Source: Escherichia virus KFS-EC. From it: a DNA stretch of 64,000 nucleotides. The stretch lies in the sequence record MH560358; one strand, given 5' to 3'. The position numbers were made by a program, and so were the translations under genes. The notes below the pieces were generated by a model. It searched no databases and had not been told where the DNA came from. It saw only the letters and a program-made list of their open reading frames with translations. This document shows positions 28,103 through 60,867 of the stretch, in pieces. The first letter of the stretch is position 1; every line of letters begins with the position of its first letter.

Positions 28103-28131
28103 ATTATAGGGGATCACCGATCCCCTGTCAA
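28103..28131 (-). promoter_or_regulatory. PeSL-type early promoter (TTGACA, GGGGATCggtGATCCCC, TATAAT)
   Basis: Minus strand: -35 TTGACA, 17-nt spacer that is a perfect GC palindrome, -10 TATAAT, then conserved leader ending in a ribosome binding site. Confidence 0.6.
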
Positions 28132-30479: not shown

Positions 30480-30508
30480 ATTATAGGGGATCTCCCGATC
30501 CCCGTCAA
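30480..30508 (-). promoter_or_regulatory. PeSL-type early promoter (TTGACG, GGGGATCgggagATCCCC, TATAAT)
   Basis: Palindromic spacer between -35 and -10 on the minus strand. Confidence 0.55.
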
Positions 30509-33761: not shown

Positions 33762-33790
33762 ATTATAGGGGATCGGTGATCCCCTGTCAA
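33762..33790 (-). promoter_or_regulatory. PeSL-type early promoter (TTGACA, GGGGATCaccGATCCCC, TATAAT)
   Basis: Same architecture and almost the same palindrome as the promoter at 28103-28131. Confidence 0.6.
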
Positions 33791-42073: not shown

Positions 42074-43243
42074 TTACCAATCAATCTTATCAGCCGGAAT
42101 CAGTTTCTTATAATTCCGTAGATAGTAAGTTTTCATTGAATCCAGAATACGGTCATAATCAAGACCATCAAATGCAATCATCAGACACATGAAAATATAT
42201 GCTTGTGCATCACCATGTTTACGTGATTCGATAGTCGCATTTGATGCATATGTCTTTCTGTCTTCTCCCGCGTGTGCGTTATAAAATTCTGTTGCTGTCG
42301 TGAAGGCATTGCGAAGAATAGACCTGAATGCTTCCTCGAATAGCTCGATTCTTTCCAGTGCTTCCGGTTCGCCTTCATATGCAGCACGCAAATCATCGGT
42401 TTCGCTTTCTACGACATAGTAGATCAGGTTATTAGGAAACATCGATGTGTTTTTAATGTTATGCACACCAATATACCATTCACTCTTCACTTTGAACAGT
42501 TGACCGTCTTTAGTGCGTGCAACAATTCCTTCGATACCTTCTGCGGTCCGAACTTCGTCAAGAATATTGCTAAAACGCGCTGAATCAACCTGTAACGCAT
42601 TTACCAGATGAGGACGTAGGATTGCGTCAGCAAATAGCATTTGATGCGGTACGTACTCTCCTGTGACGTTATGACGTACATTCAGAAGTGTTAGCGACGG
42701 TTCAGAATATTCTACAACAATTCGGTTGCTGGGCGCTGTATATTCAAAGTTGAAAGTATAATCAGACCCAATATCAGCAATCTTAGCGCGTAGATCCGCA
42801 TACTTCTCTGAATACAGAAGACCGTTTGCTCTCTCTGCCTGGCTTGAGTACAAGGCCGCTTTAGACTTCAACTGAACATAGCCGTTATCAATGTAGGTGC
42901 TTACTAGACTACCGTCCATTTTGTCCATGACCATTTCCACATCTTCCGGCTTAAAGCGAGCGCGATCATTCTCGCCTAAATTAAAAAACTTCTCCATAGG
43001 ACGAGATGCAATGCGGACTGGTCGGTCTTTATCGTCAATTTCAAACATGATCCCGCGACACTCTAACGCATCTGGTTTATTCCACATTTCAGGTTTGCTC
43101 AAGTACAGATAGCTAAAAATGCGCATACGGGTTTGCATCGCCGTAATTTCATCTTTGTAATAGAACGTATCAGATCCGTCACATAGTGCCATCAGATTTT
43201 TGAACAATGCTAAAACTTTTTTGTTGTTTTCTTTTGTTGACAT
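42074..43243 (-). CDS. rnlA: RNA ligase 1 (RnlA)
   Basis: ALECRGIMFE..RPVRIASRPMEKFFNL matches T4 RnlA nearly exactly. Confidence 0.9.
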   Translation of the reverse strand: MSTKENNKKVLALFKNLMALCDGSDTFYYKDEITAMQTRMRIFSYLYLSKPEMWNKPDALECRGIMFEIDDKDRPVRIASRPMEKFFNLGENDRARFKPEDVEMVMDKMDGSLVSTYIDNGYVQLKSKAALYSSQAERANGLLYSEKYADLRAKIADIGSDYTFNFEYTAPSNRIVVEYSEPSLTLLNVRHNVTGEYVPHQMLFADAILRPHLVNALQVDSARFSNILDEVRTAEGIEGIVARTKDGQLFKVKSEWYIGVHNIKNTSMFPNNLIYYVVESETDDLRAAYEGEPEALERIELFEEAFRSILRNAFTTATEFYNAHAGEDRKTYASNATIESRKHGDAQAYIFMCLMIAFDGLDYDRILDSMKTYYLRNYKKLIPADKIDW

Positions 43244-43640
43244 AATTTGTGTTCCATTCTGGTTTAAATTTGGTGATCAAAACAGGTTCTTCGATATCGG
43301 CAGTGCTTATAATATCCTTACCTGTTGGATTTTCTATGCACAACTCAAAGCACTGGCGGTAATAGAATGTTACTATCTTCCCTTCCTCTAGCGCCTTATG
43401 AATATTCTTACTCTTGCGAGTATCTGCCGTTGGTGTTTGTCTGTTAATGCTCGTCCGGTAATAATTGATCCGCTTTCTGAGATTGATAGTCTGACCAATG
43501 TATACCAGTTCATCATCAACCGCAATAGCATAAAGAACATTTAAACGGTTTTTCTGAGGAGGTAGAATCACATCACCATCTTTACACTCTAAACATGAAT
43601 ATTTAACGAATCCATAGTTTTCTATTAGCTCATTAATCAT
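43179..43640 (-). CDS. denA: Endonuclease II (DenA), GIY-YIG family
   Basis: NVLYAIAVDDELVYIGQTINLRKRINYYRT matches T4 DenA; C-terminal extension overlaps the rnlA start. Confidence 0.85.
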   Translation of the reverse strand: MINELIENYGFVKYSCLECKDGDVILPPQKNRLNVLYAIAVDDELVYIGQTINLRKRINYYRTSINRQTPTADTRKSKNIHKALEEGKIVTFYYRQCFELCIENPTGKDIISTADIEEPVLITKFKPEWNTNYVNKRKQQKSFSIVQKSDGTM

Positions 43641-44981: not shown

Positions 44982-45458
44982 TTAATCATGACCGTGATTT
45001 GCAATATCCGCTCGCGTCTTATCTTTGTGATTTCCTACGTCAAAGACACGATAACCATTTTCACGCAAAACTTTAATCACTTCTGGGTTATCCTCAAAGA
45101 CTCCGACAACTTCATCTTTATCAAAGGATTTAATTACCTCTAATTTGATGTGATAGTCTTTACGGGAATCGGTACGGCCTCTCATAAAGATTTTATCAAA
45201 ACACACCCCGTTAGAAATTAACCAATCAATTGTTTCCATGTAAGCATGTGAACTTCGTCCGGTGAGGATGTAAATCAAATGCCCGTTGTCTGAAAGAGCA
45301 TTAATAACACGAATTACATCGTAAATGGGGGAATCTCCCCCACATGCCTTGTTATATTCGATCCATGACTCGACTTTATCAAGATTTTCGGTTGGCATCT
45401 TTGCTAGTCGATGTGTTGGATCTGTGATCGTAAAATCTAAATCGACAAAATATATCAT
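44982..45458 (-). CDS. HAD-family phosphatase-like protein (158 aa)
   Basis: DLDFT (DxDxT) motif I near the N-terminus and ILTGR motif; resembles the phosphatase half of PseT. Confidence 0.55.
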   Translation of the reverse strand: MIYFVDLDFTITDPTHRLAKMPTENLDKVESWIEYNKACGGDSPIYDVIRVINALSDNGHLIYILTGRSSHAYMETIDWLISNGVCFDKIFMRGRTDSRKDYHIKLEVIKSFDKDEVVGVFEDNPEVIKVLRENGYRVFDVGNHKDKTRADIANHGHD

Positions 45459-46618
45459 AGATATTTCCCGAATCGGTTGTAGTCTTCGTCTGTTAAATCG
45501 GTATTAACCTGAGATACCAGATACATAATCTCTACTTCCTGCGCTGCATTCTGTACTTCGTCAGAGTTCAACCATTTACGCATCCACGGTAACGGATGAC
45601 GACGAACACTAAACGGGCTTTTCAGTCCGGCAGCACGCATACGGGAATCTGCCAGGTATTCTACATAGGTTTTCAGAATTTCCGGTGACAAGCCAGGAAT
45701 TGCCCCCATTGCGAATAAGTGATCTACCCATTCTTTTTCTTGCTCGACAACATCCAGAAAGATTTTCGTTGCTTCGCCTTCAAGTTCTTCCGCAATCTGT
45801 TTCCACTCATCACCATCAGCCCCCGTTTGCCATTGACGAATAATGTATTGTGTTCCTTTTAAGTGAAGTTGTTCATCACGCGCAATAAATTTCATGATCT
45901 TCGCGTTACCTTCCAGCAAACCACGTTCGGCAAAGCTGAAAGTACATGCAAAAGACACATAAAAACGGATTGCTTCCAGTGCATTAACGCAATGCATACA
46001 CAGATAGAGTGAGTCCATCAGATTGCGTTTAGTTTCTTCCACGTACGAAATGCTATCAGAATATGCATCAAGGTCAAATTCATTTTCAGAAGAACGACTA
46101 AAACTTTCTTTAGCGTCCTCGTATTCACGGATTTTCACCAGAACATCATCATAATATTGCCCGATAGATTCCGCTCGCTTCATGATAGCAGGGTTATCGA
46201 TGATCTGGTCGAACTCACTAGCCGGATCAATGAAACAGTTACGCATAATGTGTGTATAGCTTCGGCTATGAATCGTTTCGCTGAATGTCCATGTTTGCAA
46301 CCATGTATCGAGAGTTGGATCAGATACAATTGGACCAAATGCTGCGGACGGTGCGCGACCTTGAATAGAATCAAGTAATGTCTGATACTTCAAGTTTTCA
46401 GTAAAGAAACGCTTTTCAACGTCACCCATATTAAGATATTGAATGCGGTCGGTTGCAAGTGAAATTTCTTCTGGACGCCAGAAAAATGACAGAGATTTTT
46501 CAATTAATTCTTCAAATACTTGATGACGCTGAATATCATAGCGAGCGATACCCAACCCACTACCCAGAAACATCGGTTCGTTCATAATATCAACATGTTC
46601 GCGGTTAAATACGCTCAT
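45455..46618 (-). CDS. nrdB: Ribonucleotide reductase small subunit NrdB
   Basis: 387 aa, similarity to T4 NrdB; uninterrupted (no intron). Confidence 0.9.
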   Translation of the reverse strand: MSVFNREHVDIMNEPMFLGSGLGIARYDIQRHQVFEELIEKSLSFFWRPEEISLATDRIQYLNMGDVEKRFFTENLKYQTLLDSIQGRAPSAAFGPIVSDPTLDTWLQTWTFSETIHSRSYTHIMRNCFIDPASEFDQIIDNPAIMKRAESIGQYYDDVLVKIREYEDAKESFSRSSENEFDLDAYSDSISYVEETKRNLMDSLYLCMHCVNALEAIRFYVSFACTFSFAERGLLEGNAKIMKFIARDEQLHLKGTQYIIRQWQTGADGDEWKQIAEELEGEATKIFLDVVEQEKEWVDHLFAMGAIPGLSPEILKTYVEYLADSRMRAAGLKSPFSVRRHPLPWMRKWLNSDEVQNAAQEVEIMYLVSQVNTDLTDEDYNRFGKYL

Positions 46619-46633
46619 TAATTCACCTCACTA

Positions 46634-46801
46634 TCACTTTTTAACACAAAAGAACTTAGTATTTCTGTTTATTTCGCTATCCTGCTGCAATTCCTGCACA
46701 GCTTCAAAACAATTTTGATGTGATGAAAACTCTACGCTGGTAACAGTTCCTTTATTATATACGCCTACGCTAACGGAAAGTAATAACCATATTGTAGCCA
46801 T
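46634..46801 (-). CDS. Small protein (55 aa) with hydrophobic N-terminus, paralogue B
   Basis: ATG ORF MATIWLLLSVSVGVYNKG...; start overlaps the upstream stop (TAATG). Confidence 0.4.
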   Translation of the reverse strand: MATIWLLLSVSVGVYNKGTVTSVEFSSHQNCFEAVQELQQDSEINRNTKFFCVKK

Positions 46802-46974
46802 TAGTTCACCTTCTGCTTTTCAACACAGTACAGATTCATAAAGCGTTTATTGTCTTCGCGGATAACCTCGCGAGCTTTAACGCAATCCTGCTTTGTTGCA
46901 AACTCAATGCTTGACATATTTCCGTAATTATACATTGAATTGCTGATTGCAATCAATAACCATACAGTAGCCAT
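46801..46974 (-). CDS. Small protein (57 aa) with hydrophobic N-terminus, paralogue A
   Basis: ATG ORF MATVWLLIAISNSMYNYG...; TAATG coupling at both ends. Confidence 0.4.
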   Translation of the reverse strand: MATVWLLIAISNSMYNYGNMSSIEFATKQDCVKAREVIREDNKRFMNLYCVEKQKVN

Positions 46975-47141
46975 TATTCGACAACCTCAAAGCATTTATC
47001 ATCAGGAAGAATAGCCCATTCTACGCCATATTCATCCTCAACGTAGTAGCAAGCCCCATCATGTCGAGCATCATATTCATCACCGACAACAAAGCTATCA
47101 GCTAGCTCAAAATCTACAGCAACACATTTTAATTTGGTCAT
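46974..47141 (-). CDS. Small acidic protein (55 aa)
   Basis: Start moved to ATG (MTKLKCVAVDF) with GTGAGGA ribosome binding site downstream of a PeSL promoter. Confidence 0.45.
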   Translation of the reverse strand: MTKLKCVAVDFELADSFVVGDEYDARHDGACYYVEDEYGVEWAILPDDKCFEVVE

Positions 47142-47172
47142 AATAAAATCCTCACTTGTTTTTGATGGTTGT

Positions 47173-47201
47173 ATTATAGCGGGGATTTCTCCCCGCGTCA
47201 A
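47173..47201 (-). promoter_or_regulatory. PeSL-type early promoter (TTGACG, GCGGGGAgaaaTCCCCGC, TATAAT)
   Basis: Palindromic spacer between -35 and -10, directly downstream of the nrdA stop. Confidence 0.55.
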
Positions 47202-47209
47202 CACTTATT

Positions 47210-49453
47210 TTACAGCTTGCAAGATGAGCACTCGCTAGCGTCTTCCGTACCATCTGCACCGTCGCGAACGTTCGCATAATACAGGGTTTTCAGACCGTAA
47301 TATTGAGCAAACAGCATATCATCTAACACATCAGCAATATCGACTTTACCAGTCTTATAAGTGCTTGGATCGTAGGATGTATTGGAACTAATCGCCTGAT
47401 CTACAAACTTCTGCATGATCGCTGCCAGTGTCAGATAAGGCTTGTTACCTTTCTTGATCAGTGTCCAAAGCAGGTCAATAACATCAGCATTATTCTCTAC
47501 GTTCGGAATAACCTGATTAAATTGCCCTTCTTTCGATCCTTTAACCGATACAATCCCGCGAGGCGGTTCAATACCGTTTGTGCTGTTAGATACCTGAGAA
47601 GACGACTCACAAGGCATCAGCGCCGAAAGCGTACTGTTACGAATGCCATATTTTTTCAGGTCTTCGCGCAGTTCTTCCCAATCCATCTCATACACCGGAT
47701 CAACCAGTTCATCTACTGTCTTTTTGTACCAGTCGATAGGCAGTTCACCGCGACCATAGCGTGTTTCGTGCATCAGTTCGCAAGCACCCTTCTCTTTAGC
47801 CAGTCGCACACTAGCCTTAATCAGAGCATATTGCAAGCGTTCAAACGTTTTATGCGTAAACTCGTTAGCGTCTTCATATGTGAAGAAATTATCTGCTAGA
47901 TATGATGCAAAGTTAGTAACACCAATACCCAGAGAGCGACGTTTTTTGGCTGTCAGAGCTTGTTCTACAGGATAATCCTGATAATCTAACAGGTTGTCAA
48001 GTGCACGCACCATAACCATAGCAATGCGTTCTACTTCTTCCATATTTTCGATATCAAAGTTTCCTAAAACATATGCTGCCAAAGTGCATAGGCTGATCTC
48101 TGAATCATCACGACCCATCGGTTTTGTTGGCAGAGCAATTTCACAACACAGGTTAGATTGTTTAATCGGTGCTACATTACGAATAAACGCCCCGTGATTG
48201 TTCATGTTGTCTGTGAACGTTGGGTAGATTCGACCAGTGTTAAAACGTTCAATTGCCACCGCTAAAAACAGGTCTTCGGCTTTAACACGAGTTTTACGAA
48301 CACTCGGATCTTTTTCCAGTTTTTCGTAAAGCTGGCGGAAACCTTCCTCATCTCGGAAGTATAGATCCCACAACAAGCCACCCGCAACATCTGGACTAAA
48401 CAGAGTAATGTAATCCCGTTTAAGGAATCGCTCTACCATCAGGTTATTAATCTGTACGCCGTAATCAAGATGACGAATGCGGTTATCTTCCACCCCCTTA
48501 TTGTTCTTTAACACAATCAGACTTTCAAACTCTAAATGCCACATTGGGTAATAGAGTGTCGCTGCCCCGCCACGAATACCGCCTTGTGAGCATGACTTAA
48601 CGGCAGTCTGAAAATGTTTCCAGAATGGGATAACGCCAGTATGACGAACTTCACCATGCCCGATCTTAGATCCTTCCGCGCGAATCATACCAGCATTGAT
48701 ACCGATGCCAGCACGCTTGCTAATATACTTGATGATTGCATTTGCTGTTTCGTTGATGCCCTGCAATGAGTCATCACTTTCAATCACCACACACGAACTA
48801 AATTGGCGTGTTGGGGTACGCACACCTGCCATAATCGGAGTAGGCAGAGAGATTTGCTTATTCGCAACAGCATTATAAAAATCAATCACATGTTCAAGTC
48901 GATTTTCTGTCTCTTCTTGATGCAAGCACATACCGATCAGCATATACGCAAATTGCGGTGTTTCAATGATTTTCTTAGTGCTGCGATCCTGAACAAGATA
49001 TTTCTCTTTTAACTGCATCGCACCAGCATAGGTCATTTTAAAATCAAGTTTATGGTCGATGAATTTCTCCAGATATTCCACTTCTTCACGGGAATATTTT
49101 TGCAGAATTTCGCGATCATATTTTCCGGTTGCAATATTACGCTCAATATGGCTATAAAAATCAATAGGTTGGAATTGACCGTATACTGATTTACGAAGCG
49201 CGAACATTGCAAGGTTACTTGCTACATATTGATAATCAGGTGTTTCTACAGTAATGTTATCTGCGGCGACCTTAATCAATACTTTCTGGATATCATTGGT
49301 AGACATACCTTCTGTCAGAAGTGGTTCAACCATATCAAACAATTCATATGGATCAACGTTATGACCTTCGGCTGCCGCTTCCAGAATTTTCATTACTTTT
49401 TCTTTTTCAAACGGAACAGTCAGACCGGAAGACTTAACAACATTTTTAATCAT
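47210..49453 (-). CDS. nrdA: Ribonucleotide reductase large subunit NrdA
   Basis: 747 aa, class I RNR alpha with C-terminal CSSC redox pair. Confidence 0.9.
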   Translation of the reverse strand: MIKNVVKSSGLTVPFEKEKVMKILEAAAEGHNVDPYELFDMVEPLLTEGMSTNDIQKVLIKVAADNITVETPDYQYVASNLAMFALRKSVYGQFQPIDFYSHIERNIATGKYDREILQKYSREEVEYLEKFIDHKLDFKMTYAGAMQLKEKYLVQDRSTKKIIETPQFAYMLIGMCLHQEETENRLEHVIDFYNAVANKQISLPTPIMAGVRTPTRQFSSCVVIESDDSLQGINETANAIIKYISKRAGIGINAGMIRAEGSKIGHGEVRHTGVIPFWKHFQTAVKSCSQGGIRGGAATLYYPMWHLEFESLIVLKNNKGVEDNRIRHLDYGVQINNLMVERFLKRDYITLFSPDVAGGLLWDLYFRDEEGFRQLYEKLEKDPSVRKTRVKAEDLFLAVAIERFNTGRIYPTFTDNMNNHGAFIRNVAPIKQSNLCCEIALPTKPMGRDDSEISLCTLAAYVLGNFDIENMEEVERIAMVMVRALDNLLDYQDYPVEQALTAKKRRSLGIGVTNFASYLADNFFTYEDANEFTHKTFERLQYALIKASVRLAKEKGACELMHETRYGRGELPIDWYKKTVDELVDPVYEMDWEELREDLKKYGIRNSTLSALMPCESSSQVSNSTNGIEPPRGIVSVKGSKEGQFNQVIPNVENNADVIDLLWTLIKKGNKPYLTLAAIMQKFVDQAISSNTSYDPSTYKTGKVDIADVLDDMLFAQYYGLKTLYYANVRDGADGTEDASECSSCKL

Positions 49454-49499
49454 ATTACCTCACTTCATATTTTAGCAGGAACAAGTTTATCCTCCATAT

Positions 49500-49530
49500 T
49501 GGGGGGCTTTCGCCCCCCCTTTTGTTTATA
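49500..49530. other. GC stem-loop (GGGGGGCtttcGCCCCCC) at the td / nrdA junction
   Basis: Perfect 7-bp G/C stem at or overlapping the td stop; T-tract lies on the plus-strand side, so orientation and function are ambiguous; coordinates approximate. Confidence 0.3.
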
Positions 49531-50761
49531 CTGCCATTTGAGCGGTGATTGCTGGATGGCTTTGATAGTTGTGAATTTTAAAATCTTTCGGAGTCTTTGT
49601 CAATACCTCATCTAAAGATTTAAATTCCGGCAACTCAATTGTTGGTTTATCAAACGGAACACGGCTTAACTGTTCCATAACTTGATCAAAATGGTTTTTG
49701 TAAATGTGGCAATCCCCACACTGATAAACCAGTTCGCCAACTTCTAACCCGCAAATCTTCGCGATGATATGCGTTAACAGTGCATAGCTCGCTACGTTGA
49801 ACGGATTCCCTAAAAAGAGATCATTCGAACGCATGAAAAATAAACAACTCAATTTGTTGTCGTTGGAAACATAAAACTGTACCATCGGATGACATACACC
49901 TAACACAGCATTATGCGTTTCCTGTACGTTCCATGAATCAATGATAATACGACGACTATACGGATCATTCTTGATCATGTCAATAACTTTTTGTAACTGG
50001 TCTTCCCAAATCTTCGGGCGATAGACATATTCTTCATCGTCTTTAGTGCTTGATGTGTCTACGTCCATACTAACAAACATCGTGGTATCTGGTGCTAAAA
50101 TATCCCCGCCCAGATAATCACTATCAAGCAGATAACCGAAATAACCATCATCTACCCATTCCTGGAATCCCCACAAGCAATATGCATCATTAACAAAATT
50201 AGATTGAGTCTTCCAGTGGTCTGCTACTAAGAATAGATTATATTCAGAATCAAACTCTTCATAACGCATACCACGCCAGATAGCACATAAACGGTCTTCT
50301 GTGTCATTGGTTGGCGTAAAGTCTTCTACCCACGGGTGCTTAAATGTATGTGTATATTTGCTCTTAACGCGCTTAATTTTGATTTCACCATGTGGATGAA
50401 TCGGTTTGCGTCGCCACGCCATACCATACATATTGCCGACATTATAACCATTGAATCGCAAAGGATTCTTTTCTTTCATATCAAGACAGTTACCGCGCCA
50501 AATGTCGAAGGCTTCTTCGTCAAACTGACCGCGTGTAATTTCCTGTAAGCGACGGCGGTCAAGTGATCCCTCCATAAACCATAGCAACTCGCCAATTATA
50601 GAGGCTGTAGCCATCTTTTTAGTGGTCAGTAATGGGAAACCCTTGCTTAAATCGATTCGCATCTCCGCGCCGAATTTAGAGAGCGTACCTACCCCCGTGC
50701 GGTCTTCACGAGGACAGCCATTATCAAGAACATCACGCAATAGTTTCAAATATTCTTTCAT
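49526..50761 (-). CDS. td: Thymidylate synthase with large internal insertion
   Basis: N- and C-terminal blocks match ThyA / T4 Td (DRTGVGT, DPYSRRIIIDSWNV, HPAITAQMAV); about 130 extra residues between the WRR and EDQLQ blocks. Confidence 0.85.
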   Translation of the reverse strand: MKEYLKLLRDVLDNGCPREDRTGVGTLSKFGAEMRIDLSKGFPLLTTKKMATASIIGELLWFMEGSLDRRRLQEITRGQFDEEAFDIWRGNCLDMKEKNPLRFNGYNVGNMYGMAWRRKPIHPHGEIKIKRVKSKYTHTFKHPWVEDFTPTNDTEDRLCAIWRGMRYEEFDSEYNLFLVADHWKTQSNFVNDAYCLWGFQEWVDDGYFGYLLDSDYLGGDILAPDTTMFVSMDVDTSSTKDDEEYVYRPKIWEDQLQKVIDMIKNDPYSRRIIIDSWNVQETHNAVLGVCHPMVQFYVSNDNKLSCLFFMRSNDLFLGNPFNVASYALLTHIIAKICGLEVGELVYQCGDCHIYKNHFDQVMEQLSRVPFDKPTIELPEFKSLDEVLTKTPKDFKIHNYQSHPAITAQMAV

Positions 50762-60100: not shown

Positions 60101-60867
60101 CTTTCTGTAAGATTGACGATTCTGGATCTGTTGAGCATTATGCCTTTGCTATGGAACGTGACGGCGATGCGTTAGCATATAGAGACTTCATAGCAGGTCG
60201 TAACCTGTATGCGAAACAAGGCGGTTTATATATTGTAGACCACGCCAATCCGGCAATGACTCGCTCTACAGACGGTATGTTGAATATCGGTCACGGTGGA
60301 AGTGTTAACATCAAAGCCGGTTATCAGAATCTGACTACAGAGATCGCAGGACAGAAATACCAGATCGTTCACGCAGGAAACGCAGACGAAGTTCTCGACC
60401 GTCAGTTTGTCAAGAATGCTGGCGATACGATGACCGGAAAGCTGATTATGGATAATGCGCCTATTGTTTCTGTTAAGCATGAGGCTATCGCGGCAACCGC
60501 TCCGGCAATCGGTAACATCGGTTTCTGGAACATGCGAGTAACTACCCAAAACATCAAAGAAACCTATCCAGAGAAGAAAAACGGCACATTGATGCAATGG
60601 GGTACTGATGAAAACGGCCTTACCCAAATCTGGTCGCCTGATGGTACTCATAAGCATTATATCCGTTCCGGTACAGATGGTCAATGGACCGCATGGGGCG
60701 AAATTTACACCAAACAGAACAAGCCTACCGCTCAGGAAATCGGGGCAGTTGTTGCCGAAGGTGGATTGATGAACTCTATGACGGTTCGTGACTGGATCAA
60801 GGTTGGTAATGTTAAAATTATTGCCAATAATCTGACTCGTACCGTAGATTTTATCTGGGAAGACTAA
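57127..60867 (+). CDS. 34: Long tail fibre proximal subunit gp34
   Basis: 1246 aa; N-terminus similar to T4 gp34 (PTRGY, RALRTD); position after rnh. Confidence 0.85.
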   Translation: MADFSQHFKATFGFDAGNEKVVNVAYADKNTSTDAVNVEFFNYHNGITQYDTTRGYDQYGTTIYQNRPYYAKEDITKPAGDFDPTKWQALRTDPRWDYIAATSGDTPLKSGDYIAADGQFANLTFSMPTKPAEGDTITVKDIGGKCGVNELSFLSSGHEFYHNGNVYNRKWYCTTPYAMNYFIFVRNRWHVYQTGTEPRGVYAQPAIDAIQMQNGDQVFRRSSLGNITLVLPKFANNGDMIQTTDLDGLTATNHVTVKVHEHAEEQSIGTSGLKEIIGKRSGHGVFIFDKTENLWRLWDGDQSVRLKPIIDDTRLQPNSYVAVFGGRDVTLTLPTNVEPGDRIQVSMQYMHGNQNCRIITPTEDTKILMPKNMVQFPKRSEYPFNGTDTWKEVSELSFNAASDYVPYLEFSYSEGDDGKKYWLVAHAHPIVERVDPTRKARVGVIALATQTETNKNHEENPSDEVAVTPKMLANKTANETRRGIARIATQAETHQDTGSNFMDDVIVTPKKLNDCVATEARRGVMEIATQHETNEGLDDTRAITPKKLEERRASEDLAGIAEIVQAGGSAAARRGEAGTGIYNINDHAKIVTPQNINEVKATETSRGVGYLATDAEVQGATESTPQDALLITTRTLTKRTATESRTGIAEIATQEETNLGQSDNHIITPKKLHTRRATETLHGLAEIATQPEFDAGLDDARISTPLKIKTFFENAQRLKVDPTQGLNLTGDLWQGIMISGLDATEDTKGVAKVATTQLTDAGQDDTTIITPKKLQGKKATEGKEGIIRVGTQDETVAGTMDNVAISPKNFKYVVQTEETWQATEARRGFLKVATQENCFVGDNLQGSTQELDEYQHDGIAVTPKGLNYALANFLPKMATAQNSLKLGNVEAAKWARRDIDQTIESNYTFNKNVNLKGDLECLKSGSFETLFVTKNSTDDPSNGHLVLGERGVDGHTGITLHGTTLSEGMENSWSIIVGGTGTAQAVNSDAIAFCKIDDSGSVEHYAFAMERDGDALAYRDFIAGRNLYAKQGGLYIVDHANPAMTRSTDGMLNIGHGGSVNIKAGYQNLTTEIAGQKYQIVHAGNADEVLDRQFVKNAGDTMTGKLIMDNAPIVSVKHEAIAATAPAIGNIGFWNMRVTTQNIKETYPEKKNGTLMQWGTDENGLTQIWSPDGTHKHYIRSGTDGQWTAWGEIYTKQNKPTAQEIGAVVAEGGLMNSMTVRDWIKVGNVKIIANNLTRTVDFIWED

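Follow-up and report, generated by a model that had tools for sequence, protein, structure and literature searches.

The window analyzed here comprises 64,000 nt of Escherichia virus KFS-EC (record MH560358), and all positions are counted within it. By its sequence, the window belongs to Krischvirus, that is, to the RB49-like T4-type coliphages. The gap between nrdA and nrdB is filled by three small ORFs, all encoded on the minus strand. The genes of the locus, from the upstream to the downstream one, are as follows:

nrdA, 47210–49453, minus strand: upstream gene, 747 aa
ORF1, 46974–47141, minus strand: 55 aa counted from ATG (MTKLKC...); corresponds to RB49p233; PHROG 16302
ORF2, 46801–46974, minus strand: 57 aa (MATVWLLIAIS...); corresponds to RB49p232; PHROG 5579; the conserved paralogue
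ORF3, 46634–46801, minus strand: 55 aa (MATIWLLLSVS...); corresponds to RB49p231; PHROG 5579; the more variable paralogue
nrdB, 45455–46618, minus strand: cistron downstream of ORF3, 387 aa

A previous sequence-only reading of this DNA had described three minus-strand ORFs chained by TAATG overlaps, and both the program-made ORF list and the junction sequences agree with this description. On the minus strand, the ORF1/ORF2 and ORF2/ORF3 junctions read TAATGG, with the final A of the TAA serving as the first base of the ATG, and these overlaps are kept in relatives. Each ORF is also preceded by its own Shine-Dalgarno-like site (GAGGA, 7 nt 5' of the ATG of ORF1; GAGGT, 9 nt 5' of the ORF2 start; AAGGTG, 5 nt 5' of the ORF3 start), and the Shine-Dalgarno sequence of nrdB, GAGGTGA, lies inside the 15-nt gap between ORF3 and nrdB. 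Translational coupling of the three ORFs would be compatible with the overlaps; given the UAAUG overlaps and the individual Shine-Dalgarno sites, ribosomes probably pass between the small cistrons, although independent initiation is possible because each ORF has a site of its own.

The same reading had attributed the absence of the ORFs from the ORF track to a length below 60 aa. This is true of ORF2 and ORF3, but ORF1 would show there as a 76-aa ORF, since the program-made list lengthens it to a GTG start at 47204. This GTG falls within the promoter treated in a later section and lacks a Shine-Dalgarno sequence; in the records of RB49 and its relatives, the annotated gene is the 168-nt version that begins with ATG.

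Relatives, coding character and selection

The 751 bases around the locus match 57 phage records at 90–99% identity, the best being PHB13 (98.8%). The ORF2 protein of PHB13 is the same as that of the window, and the window alleles otherwise differ by a few residues from those of Krischvirus. The three ORFs of the window are RB49p231-233 (ORF231-233 of phi1): the gene order, the CDS boundaries, and the place between nrdA and nrdB all agree (95–99% nucleotide identity in 52 records), and no substantive difference separates the two sets. Orthologues of ORF1-3 carry a “hypothetical” CDS annotation in more than 50 GenBank records, which are most of the Krischvirus records. Therefore, the three genes are not new. 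They have been annotated as hypothetical since the RB49 genome; likewise, the slot that they occupy is a well-known hot spot of homing endonucleases, and both the PHROGs and the type of promoter element found here are known. A scan of IMG/VR added only two further loci, both of them from Krischvirus.

The comparison of the locus across Krischvirus genomes supports the expectation that the frames are kept in close relatives: the frames and junctions of ORF1-3 are the same in RB49, Phi1, GEC-3S, Sf20, and others. The locus was taken from 18 relatives, and pN/pS was calculated on ungapped codon alignments of 15–17 Krischvirus relatives, with the following results (polymorphic sites at codon positions 1/2/3 in brackets):

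ORF1: pN/pS 0.26 (8/5/13)
ORF2: pN/pS 0.05 (2/2/10)
ORF3: pN/pS 0.31 (6/5/10)
nrdB, first 56 codons: pN/pS 0.06 (3/2/13)
nrdA, last 56 codons: pN/pS 0.02 (3/0/21)

In all three small ORFs, third codon positions have more than their share of the polymorphic sites. Judged by these codon alignments, ORF1, ORF2, and ORF3 are under purifying selection and hence protein-coding. Together with the recurrence of the ORF2/ORF3 family in unrelated phages, the pN/pS values confirm the earlier proposal of three real small genes. The constraint on ORF2 is as strong as that on nrdB, and variation among ORF3 orthologues falls mostly in the predicted helix and the loop that follows it (9 of 21 sites). ORF2 would thus represent the constrained copy and ORF3 the faster-diverging one.

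ORF1 encodes a very acidic protein (15 D/E against 4 K/R; net charge, −11; pI ~4.05). It matches PHROG 16302 over the full length (E = 2.6e-41, residues 1–55 against positions 1–55 of the 55-position profile) and is an ORFan restricted to Krischvirus. Two assignments were rejected for this protein: kinship to the ORF2/ORF3 family, for which hhalign gave a probability of 0.2%, and DUF7244, which remained below the threshold (15.3 bits against a cut-off of 27).

The reading frame of ORF1 is disrupted in 5 of the 18 relatives examined, by a stop at codon 12 in G37-3, a stop at codon 41 in JEP8, a +1 frameshift in kaaroe, a −1 frameshift in pEJ01, and a −2 frameshift in FL20; furthermore, 21 nt are duplicated in frame in GEC-3S. 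Sequencing errors may account for two of the frameshifts, which are located in homopolymer runs. These lesions, the restriction of ORF1 to Krischvirus, and the replacement of part of the cassette by mobE in some relatives (see below) might mean that the ORF products are immaterial, the ORFs being leader cistrons or decaying filler of which only the translation or the DNA matters, for instance by keeping the nrdB mRNA translated or by serving as a recombination substrate. Such an explanation would apply mostly to ORF1. However, all three ORFs have pN/pS values far below 1, and the ORF2/ORF3 family is deeply conserved, its fold being predicted with confidence and its cysteines being invariant even between unrelated phages, so we regard it as very unlikely.

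A promoter with an embedded hairpin downstream of nrdA

Two further features occupy the region between nrdA and ORF1:

PeSL-type early promoter, 47173–47201, minus strand: TTGACG-N17-TATAAT, with the −35 hexamer at 47201–47196 and the −10 hexamer at 47178–47173
G/C hairpin, 47179–47196, minus strand: GCGGGGA-GAAA-TCCCCGC in the promoter spacer, the stem-loop of the PeSL

The −35 hexamer follows the nrdA stop codon at a distance of 8 nt. The two hexamers match 11 of the 12 consensus σ70 positions, and the element is identical or nearly identical in 18 relatives; in addition, the GEC-3S record annotates a promoter at the same position. The RNA of 47142–47215 folds with −21.5 kcal/mol (z = −4.2). 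The hairpin at 47179–47196 has a stem without a U-tract and was not called by the terminator scan, and no credible RNA family was found in the Rfam scan of 45000–49600.

The promoter-early stem-loops (PeSLs) of RB49 and phi1 combine near-perfect σ70 hexamers with a Gn-loop-Cn stem-loop, and they carry a Shine-Dalgarno sequence and an ATG at the 3' end (PMC2839356; PMC4122927). Promoter and terminator activity has been reported by experiment for the PeSLs 193/192, 206/205, and 211/210, with 211/210 acting as terminator (PMC2839356). It has been proposed that PeSLs mediate the shuffling of cassettes (Arbiol et al., 2010, PMC2839356; Comeau et al., 2014, PMC4122927). The element in the window is like these PeSLs in its hexamers, the N17 spacing, the hairpin between the boxes, the Shine-Dalgarno sequence and ATG, its repetition in the genome, and the variable ORFans that it flanks. 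On these features, the element 3' of nrdA is a PeSL-type cassette. The window holds four PeSL-type copies with a G/C hairpin, the other three being at 28103, 30480, and 33762, while chance alone would give 0.08 matches of the bare hexamer pattern. A text search of PMC2839356 and PMC4122927 found no mention of nrdA, nrdB, or ORF231-233.

In KMB43 and three other relatives, an 898-bp cassette with a C5-cytosine methyltransferase is inserted between nrdA and ORF1. In KMB43, this cassette is flanked by 43-nt direct repeats of the PeSL, as the PeSL model predicts.

According to this arrangement, the host RNA polymerase would start at about 47166, and the mRNA would read through ORF1, ORF2, ORF3, nrdB, and the gene for a PNKP phosphatase. 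The hairpin is presumed to serve as an attenuator or terminator for transcripts arriving from nrdA. By attenuating the read-through from nrdA, it would leave nrdB with an early promoter of its own. In T4, a terminator inside mobE and a middle promoter before nrdB have been described (PMC2988022); the regulatory logic of a terminator followed by a fresh promoter for nrdB would be alike at this place in both phages, with different parts. The literature search returned no expression or transcriptome data for Krischvirus.

The ORF2/ORF3 family and its predicted fold

The last two ORFs had been taken for paralogues with conserved cysteines, and our comparison leaves little doubt on this point: ORF2 and ORF3 share 38% identity and 75% positives (E = 1e-16), and both cysteines are conserved. 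Both proteins match the whole 52-position profile of PHROG 5579 (ORF2, E = 5.5e-24, residues 2–53; ORF3, E = 3.4e-24, residues 2–55). A word-indexed profile search recovered only 20 clusters of the family, and the full HMMER profile search of 1.8 billion representatives recovered 91 clusters at E ≤ 1e-3, nearly all of 50–70 aa. Among the 95 members of the resulting family, 83 matched PHROG 5579 and 14 matched PHROG 3766. ORF2 and ORF3 belong to these groups of small phage proteins, to which no function or structure has been assigned. To PHROG 5579, the present analysis contributes a fold model, the pair of invariant cysteines, and the distribution of the family over T4-like, T7-like, and temperate phages.

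The mean column identity of the 95-member alignment is 23%, and its only invariant columns are C31 and C50 (ORF2 numbering), with L7 and F25 nearly invariant. The consensus can be written as WLLI..S.G.YN.G.V...E.F.....C..A...(n)...CV. Exactly two cysteines are present in 91 of the 95 members, at a spacing of 15–27 residues.

Among GenBank phages, the family seems to be limited to Krischvirus, with the exception of the Autographiviridae Enterobacter phage SDFMU_EhYP, in which an unannotated 56-aa ORF (49% identity) lies between the genes for the primase-helicase and the DNA polymerase. The family is thus much broader than the GenBank phage records suggest, and it has no Pfam or NCBIfam model. 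The contigs with distant members are all phage-like, and the gene stands within early clusters of small ORFs. At one of these loci it adjoins genes for a dCMP deaminase, a kinase, and DnaB; at another, a DNA ligase gene; at a third, the small-ORF cluster lies upstream of AAA+ ATPase and CobT-like genes and is divergent from the terminase and portal genes. In the temperate phages, the gene has recombination genes (ERF/SSB, NinB) on one side and xis/int on the other; at one of these loci, genes for Lar restriction alleviation and a Tad2-like protein are nearby. Each of the distant phages has one copy and the window has only two (ORF2 and ORF3), so that the tandem duplication is specific to Krischvirus.

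Neither ORF2 nor ORF3 had a match in Pfam, NCBIfam, or PADLOC, and the same three resources held no functional homologue of ORF1-3. The Pfam scan of all 95 members gave scattered single hits and no family match, the PDB sequence search gave nothing below E = 0.4, and Foldseek with the ORF2 model found nothing below E = 0.5 in the PDB and many uncharacterized small phage proteins in BFVD. DUF1482 (PF07358; YebW of E. coli), a group of small prophage-type proteins, resembles the family in its size, in its hydrophobic N-terminal strand, and in the cysteine with which the helix begins, and a BFVD model labeled “DUF1482 family protein” superposes on the ORF2 model with a TM score of 0.72. The hhalign comparison of the family with YebW pairs SIEFATKQDC with VVDVYNTEQQC. 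Membership in DUF1482 was nevertheless rejected, because none of the 95 members reached E ≤ 0.1 against the Pfam model and the hhalign probability was 1.7%; the likeness is at most a resemblance at the level of the fold. A literature search on DUF1482 and the RB49 locus tags returned nothing relevant.

With the 95-sequence alignment, AlphaFold2 predicted the structure of ORF2 at a pLDDT of 91 and a pTM of 0.73; this run superseded one with 14 close sequences, which was uninformative (pLDDT 58). The model consists of a strand (residues 3–11), a second strand (20–25), a helix (28–41), and a third strand (46–54). ORF2 and ORF3 are accordingly predicted to form a compact, soluble strand-strand-helix-strand unit, in which the hydrophobic residues 3–11 would make up the first strand of a three-stranded sheet (pLDDT ~90).

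The sequence-only reading had considered the N-termini of both proteins signal-peptide-like. If it were right, ORF2 and ORF3 would be exported by a Sec signal peptide that is cut after the conserved S-x-G, leaving a periplasmic peptide of ~43 residues with a C31–C50 disulfide, for example a superinfection-exclusion or lysis-timing factor like Spackle of T4. The N-terminus is indeed hydrophobic, the S-x-G before Y-N fits the −3/−1 rule for signal peptidase, and two invariant cysteines are typical of disulfide-stabilized extracytoplasmic mini-proteins. However, the expected hydrophobic core of a signal peptide is about 10–15 residues after a positive n-region, whereas the strictly apolar N-terminal run of the 95 family members is at most 9 residues long (median, 7). 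Before this core, 77 members have no net charge and 7 have a negative one, so that 84 of the 95 lack a net positive charge there; in ORF2 and ORF3 the core is preceded by MAT-. The best Kyte-Doolittle 19-residue windows (0.61 for ORF2 and 1.11 for ORF3) are low against the membrane-helix cut-off of 1.6, which goes with an apolar core of at least 18 residues. Moreover, the N-terminal segment (WLLI..S.G.YN.G) is the most conserved stretch of the family, which is unusual for a cleaved leader, and its removal from the model would leave one strand, the helix, and one strand. An N-terminus that forms the first strand of the sheet is not a signal peptide. The signal-peptide reading is therefore probably wrong, export is unlikely, and ORF2 and ORF3 are better left out of counts of secreted or membrane proteins. 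The N-terminal peptide of ORF2/ORF3 in its uncleaved form is (M)ATVWLLIAISNSMYNYGNMSSIEFATK.

The nrdA-nrdB slot and possible roles of the cassette

The previous reading had compared the locus with nrdA.1/nrdA.2 and mobE of T4. mobE does occupy the nrdA-nrdB gap of T4, but the other gene in this gap is nrdB.1, and nrdA.1 and nrdA.2 are found on the upstream side of nrdA, between it and td. In the T-even phages, mobE and nrdB.1 of T4 (and hef) take the same genomic slot as ORF1-3. MobE of T4 is an HNH/NUMOD3 homing endonuclease. Searching the six-frame ORFs of the T4 locus at 135–146 kb with the family profile found nothing, and homology of ORF2/ORF3 to T4 mobE, nrdB.1, nrdA.1, or nrdA.2 was rejected on this basis.

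ORF1, ORF2, and ORF3 are all present in 51 of the 57 Krischvirus records. In JSE (two records), AV108, and FL15, ORF1 is followed by a 215-aa homing endonuclease (mobE) that replaces ORF2 and ORF3. The MobE of JSE is intact; it is 49% identical to T4 MobE at the N-terminus and 58% identical to T4 NrdB.1 at the C-terminus, and this resemblance shows that nrdB.1 of T4 is the severed C-terminus of MobE. G37-3 has one ORF2/ORF3 chimera and an HNH_3-AP2 endonuclease, and FL20 has a chimera of ORF2/ORF3 only. The 5' ends of ORF2 and ORF3 are 80% identical over 35 nt, which accounts for these chimeras, including the one in the metagenomic P0019.

As far as gene content tells, ORF2 and ORF3 are accessory and mutually exclusive with mobE, and the cassette of ORF1-3 is dispensable, being swapped for homing endonucleases in some relatives. 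With the three ORFs, mobE, the HNH-AP2 endonuclease, and the methyltransferase, the locus offers a natural series for the study of dispensability and of exchange mediated by PeSLs or homing.

Overall, we consider it somewhat more probable than not (roughly 0.55) that the locus represents a small cassette of early genes, carried by an RB49-type phage at the nrdA/nrdB hot spot, with the parts as explained above. The products of ORF1-3 would be early cytoplasmic proteins that bind a partner protein of the host or the phage. An accessory role of the host-takeover or anti-defence type, exerted through protein binding, is suggested by the dispensability of the cassette, the tandem duplication into a constrained and a faster-evolving copy, the variation of ORF3 in the helix and loop, and the early-cluster contexts of distant members; we propose this role only tentatively. 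Even more tentative is a scenario in which the Cys-pair mini-protein is directed, at an early stage of infection, against a conserved host factor or a defence system that it inhibits or rewires, with the cysteines forming a disulfide, a metal site, or a redox-sensitive site. If true, the family would be a new class of phage counter-defence or takeover proteins, and the duplication in Krischvirus would be the mark of an arms race in which ORF2 is held constrained and ORF3 diversifies on the face of its helix.

The position of ORF2 and ORF3 between nrdA and nrdB, in the same orientation as nrdB, might instead point to helpers of the co-transcribed ribonucleotide reductase (RNR), in which the two cysteines form a redox-active pair or a Zn or Fe-S site across a dimer. 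The invariance of the cysteines and the location of distant members near genes for dCMP deaminase and a kinase, DNA ligase, and replication would be in line with such a function. However, the wide spacing of the two cysteines does not make a CxxC, neither their fold nor the searches link the proteins to thioredoxin or glutaredoxin, no RNR gene occurs in the fetched flanks of the distant loci examined, and JSE, AV108, and FL15 keep nrdA and nrdB without both paralogues. Thus, we find such a helper function unlikely. Assignment to the thioredoxin/glutaredoxin-type proteins as such was rejected, based on the missing CxxC, the strand-strand-helix-strand fold, and the lack of a Pfam match.

Owing to its breadth, its confident predicted fold, and its pair of cysteines, the ORF2/ORF3 family could reasonably be included when small accessory proteins of phages are screened for function.

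Two invariant cysteines would be odd in a purely cytoplasmic binder and speak against the main reading, which does not account for the disulfide, metal, or redox role that they may indicate.

Methyltransferase cassette and PeSL-type elements

In phage KMB43 (locus L002, 1623-2563), the interval between nrdA and ORF1 carries an 898-bp insert that codes for a C-5 cytosine DNA methyltransferase (PF00145, E=4e-19), and the same cassette was found between these genes in LF73P4, Delraymugoa and Aragogtheria. In KMB43 it is bounded on both sides by 43-nt direct repeats of the promoter-early stem-loop (PeSL), which are 95% identical, an arrangement that makes the cassette a textbook example of PeSL-mediated insertion. 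Three additional PeSL-type elements of the window have the order TTGAC, GGGGATC...GATCCCC hairpin and TATAAT:

28103-28131, minus strand, PeSL-type element
30480-30508, minus strand, PeSL-type element
33762-33790, minus strand, PeSL-type element

A fifth exact match to the hexamers, at 60656-60684, lacks the G/C hairpin.

Recombination and replacement of the small genes

A single chimera of the paralogues ORF2 and ORF3 is present in G37-3 (locus L005, 1501-2218), with MATVW derived from ORF2 and the remainder from ORF3; a 179-aa homing endonuclease (HNH_3 and AP2 domains) lies between this chimera and nrdB, and ORF1 is interrupted by a stop at codon 12. Other ORF2/ORF3 recombinants were found in FL20 and in the metagenomic protein P0019. 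In GEC-3S (locus L001), an in-frame 21-nt tandem duplication (…VYDARRDEYDARHD…) extends the ORF1 protein to 62 aa.

In JSE, AV108 and FL15, both ORF2 and ORF3 are replaced by an intact 215-aa MobE-type HNH/NUMOD3 endonuclease. The regions compared were:

L009, 2238-2885, MobE-type endonuclease locus of JSE
L030, MobE-type endonuclease locus of AV108
L031, MobE-type endonuclease locus of FL15
L017, 4717-5417, corresponding T4 region

The last 81 residues of the MobE-type endonuclease are 58% identical to T4 NrdB.1; the T4 gene nrdB.1 thus appears to be a MobE C-terminus that has been split from the rest of the protein.

The Autographiviridae member Enterobacter phage SDFMU_EhYP (OQ884031; locus L004, 2644-2814) has a homologue of ORF2/ORF3, 56 aa long and with 49% identity, which is not annotated and lies between the genes for a primase-helicase-like ATPase and DNA polymerase. 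This 1.1-kb gap also holds several more small ORFs without annotation.

Candidate internal promoters and genes around nrdB

Three further features of the window are:

About 46973-47002, minus strand, AAATGCTTTG with a MotA-box-like TGCTT, ORF1/ORF2 junction
44982-45458, minus strand, 158-aa ORF overlapping the nrdB stop (ATGA)
43179-43640, minus strand, 153-aa ORF with a borderline GIY-YIG match

Together with AATAAT located 11-12 nt downstream, AAATGCTTTG could represent a T4-type middle promoter for ORF3 and nrdB. Inside ORF2, at 46956-46927, there is a second σ70-like site, TTGATT-18-TATAAT (10/12 positions).

Relatives annotate the 158-aa ORF as '3'-phosphatase' or 'polynucleotide kinase'. 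Its match to polynucleotide kinase-phosphatase is confined to the HAD phosphatase domain (PF25109, E=2.9e-13), and no kinase domain was found in it. Downstream of the nrdB operon, the 153-aa ORF, whose GIY-YIG score of 22.2 bits falls just short of the gathering score (22.6), may encode a Seg-like free-standing homing endonuclease.
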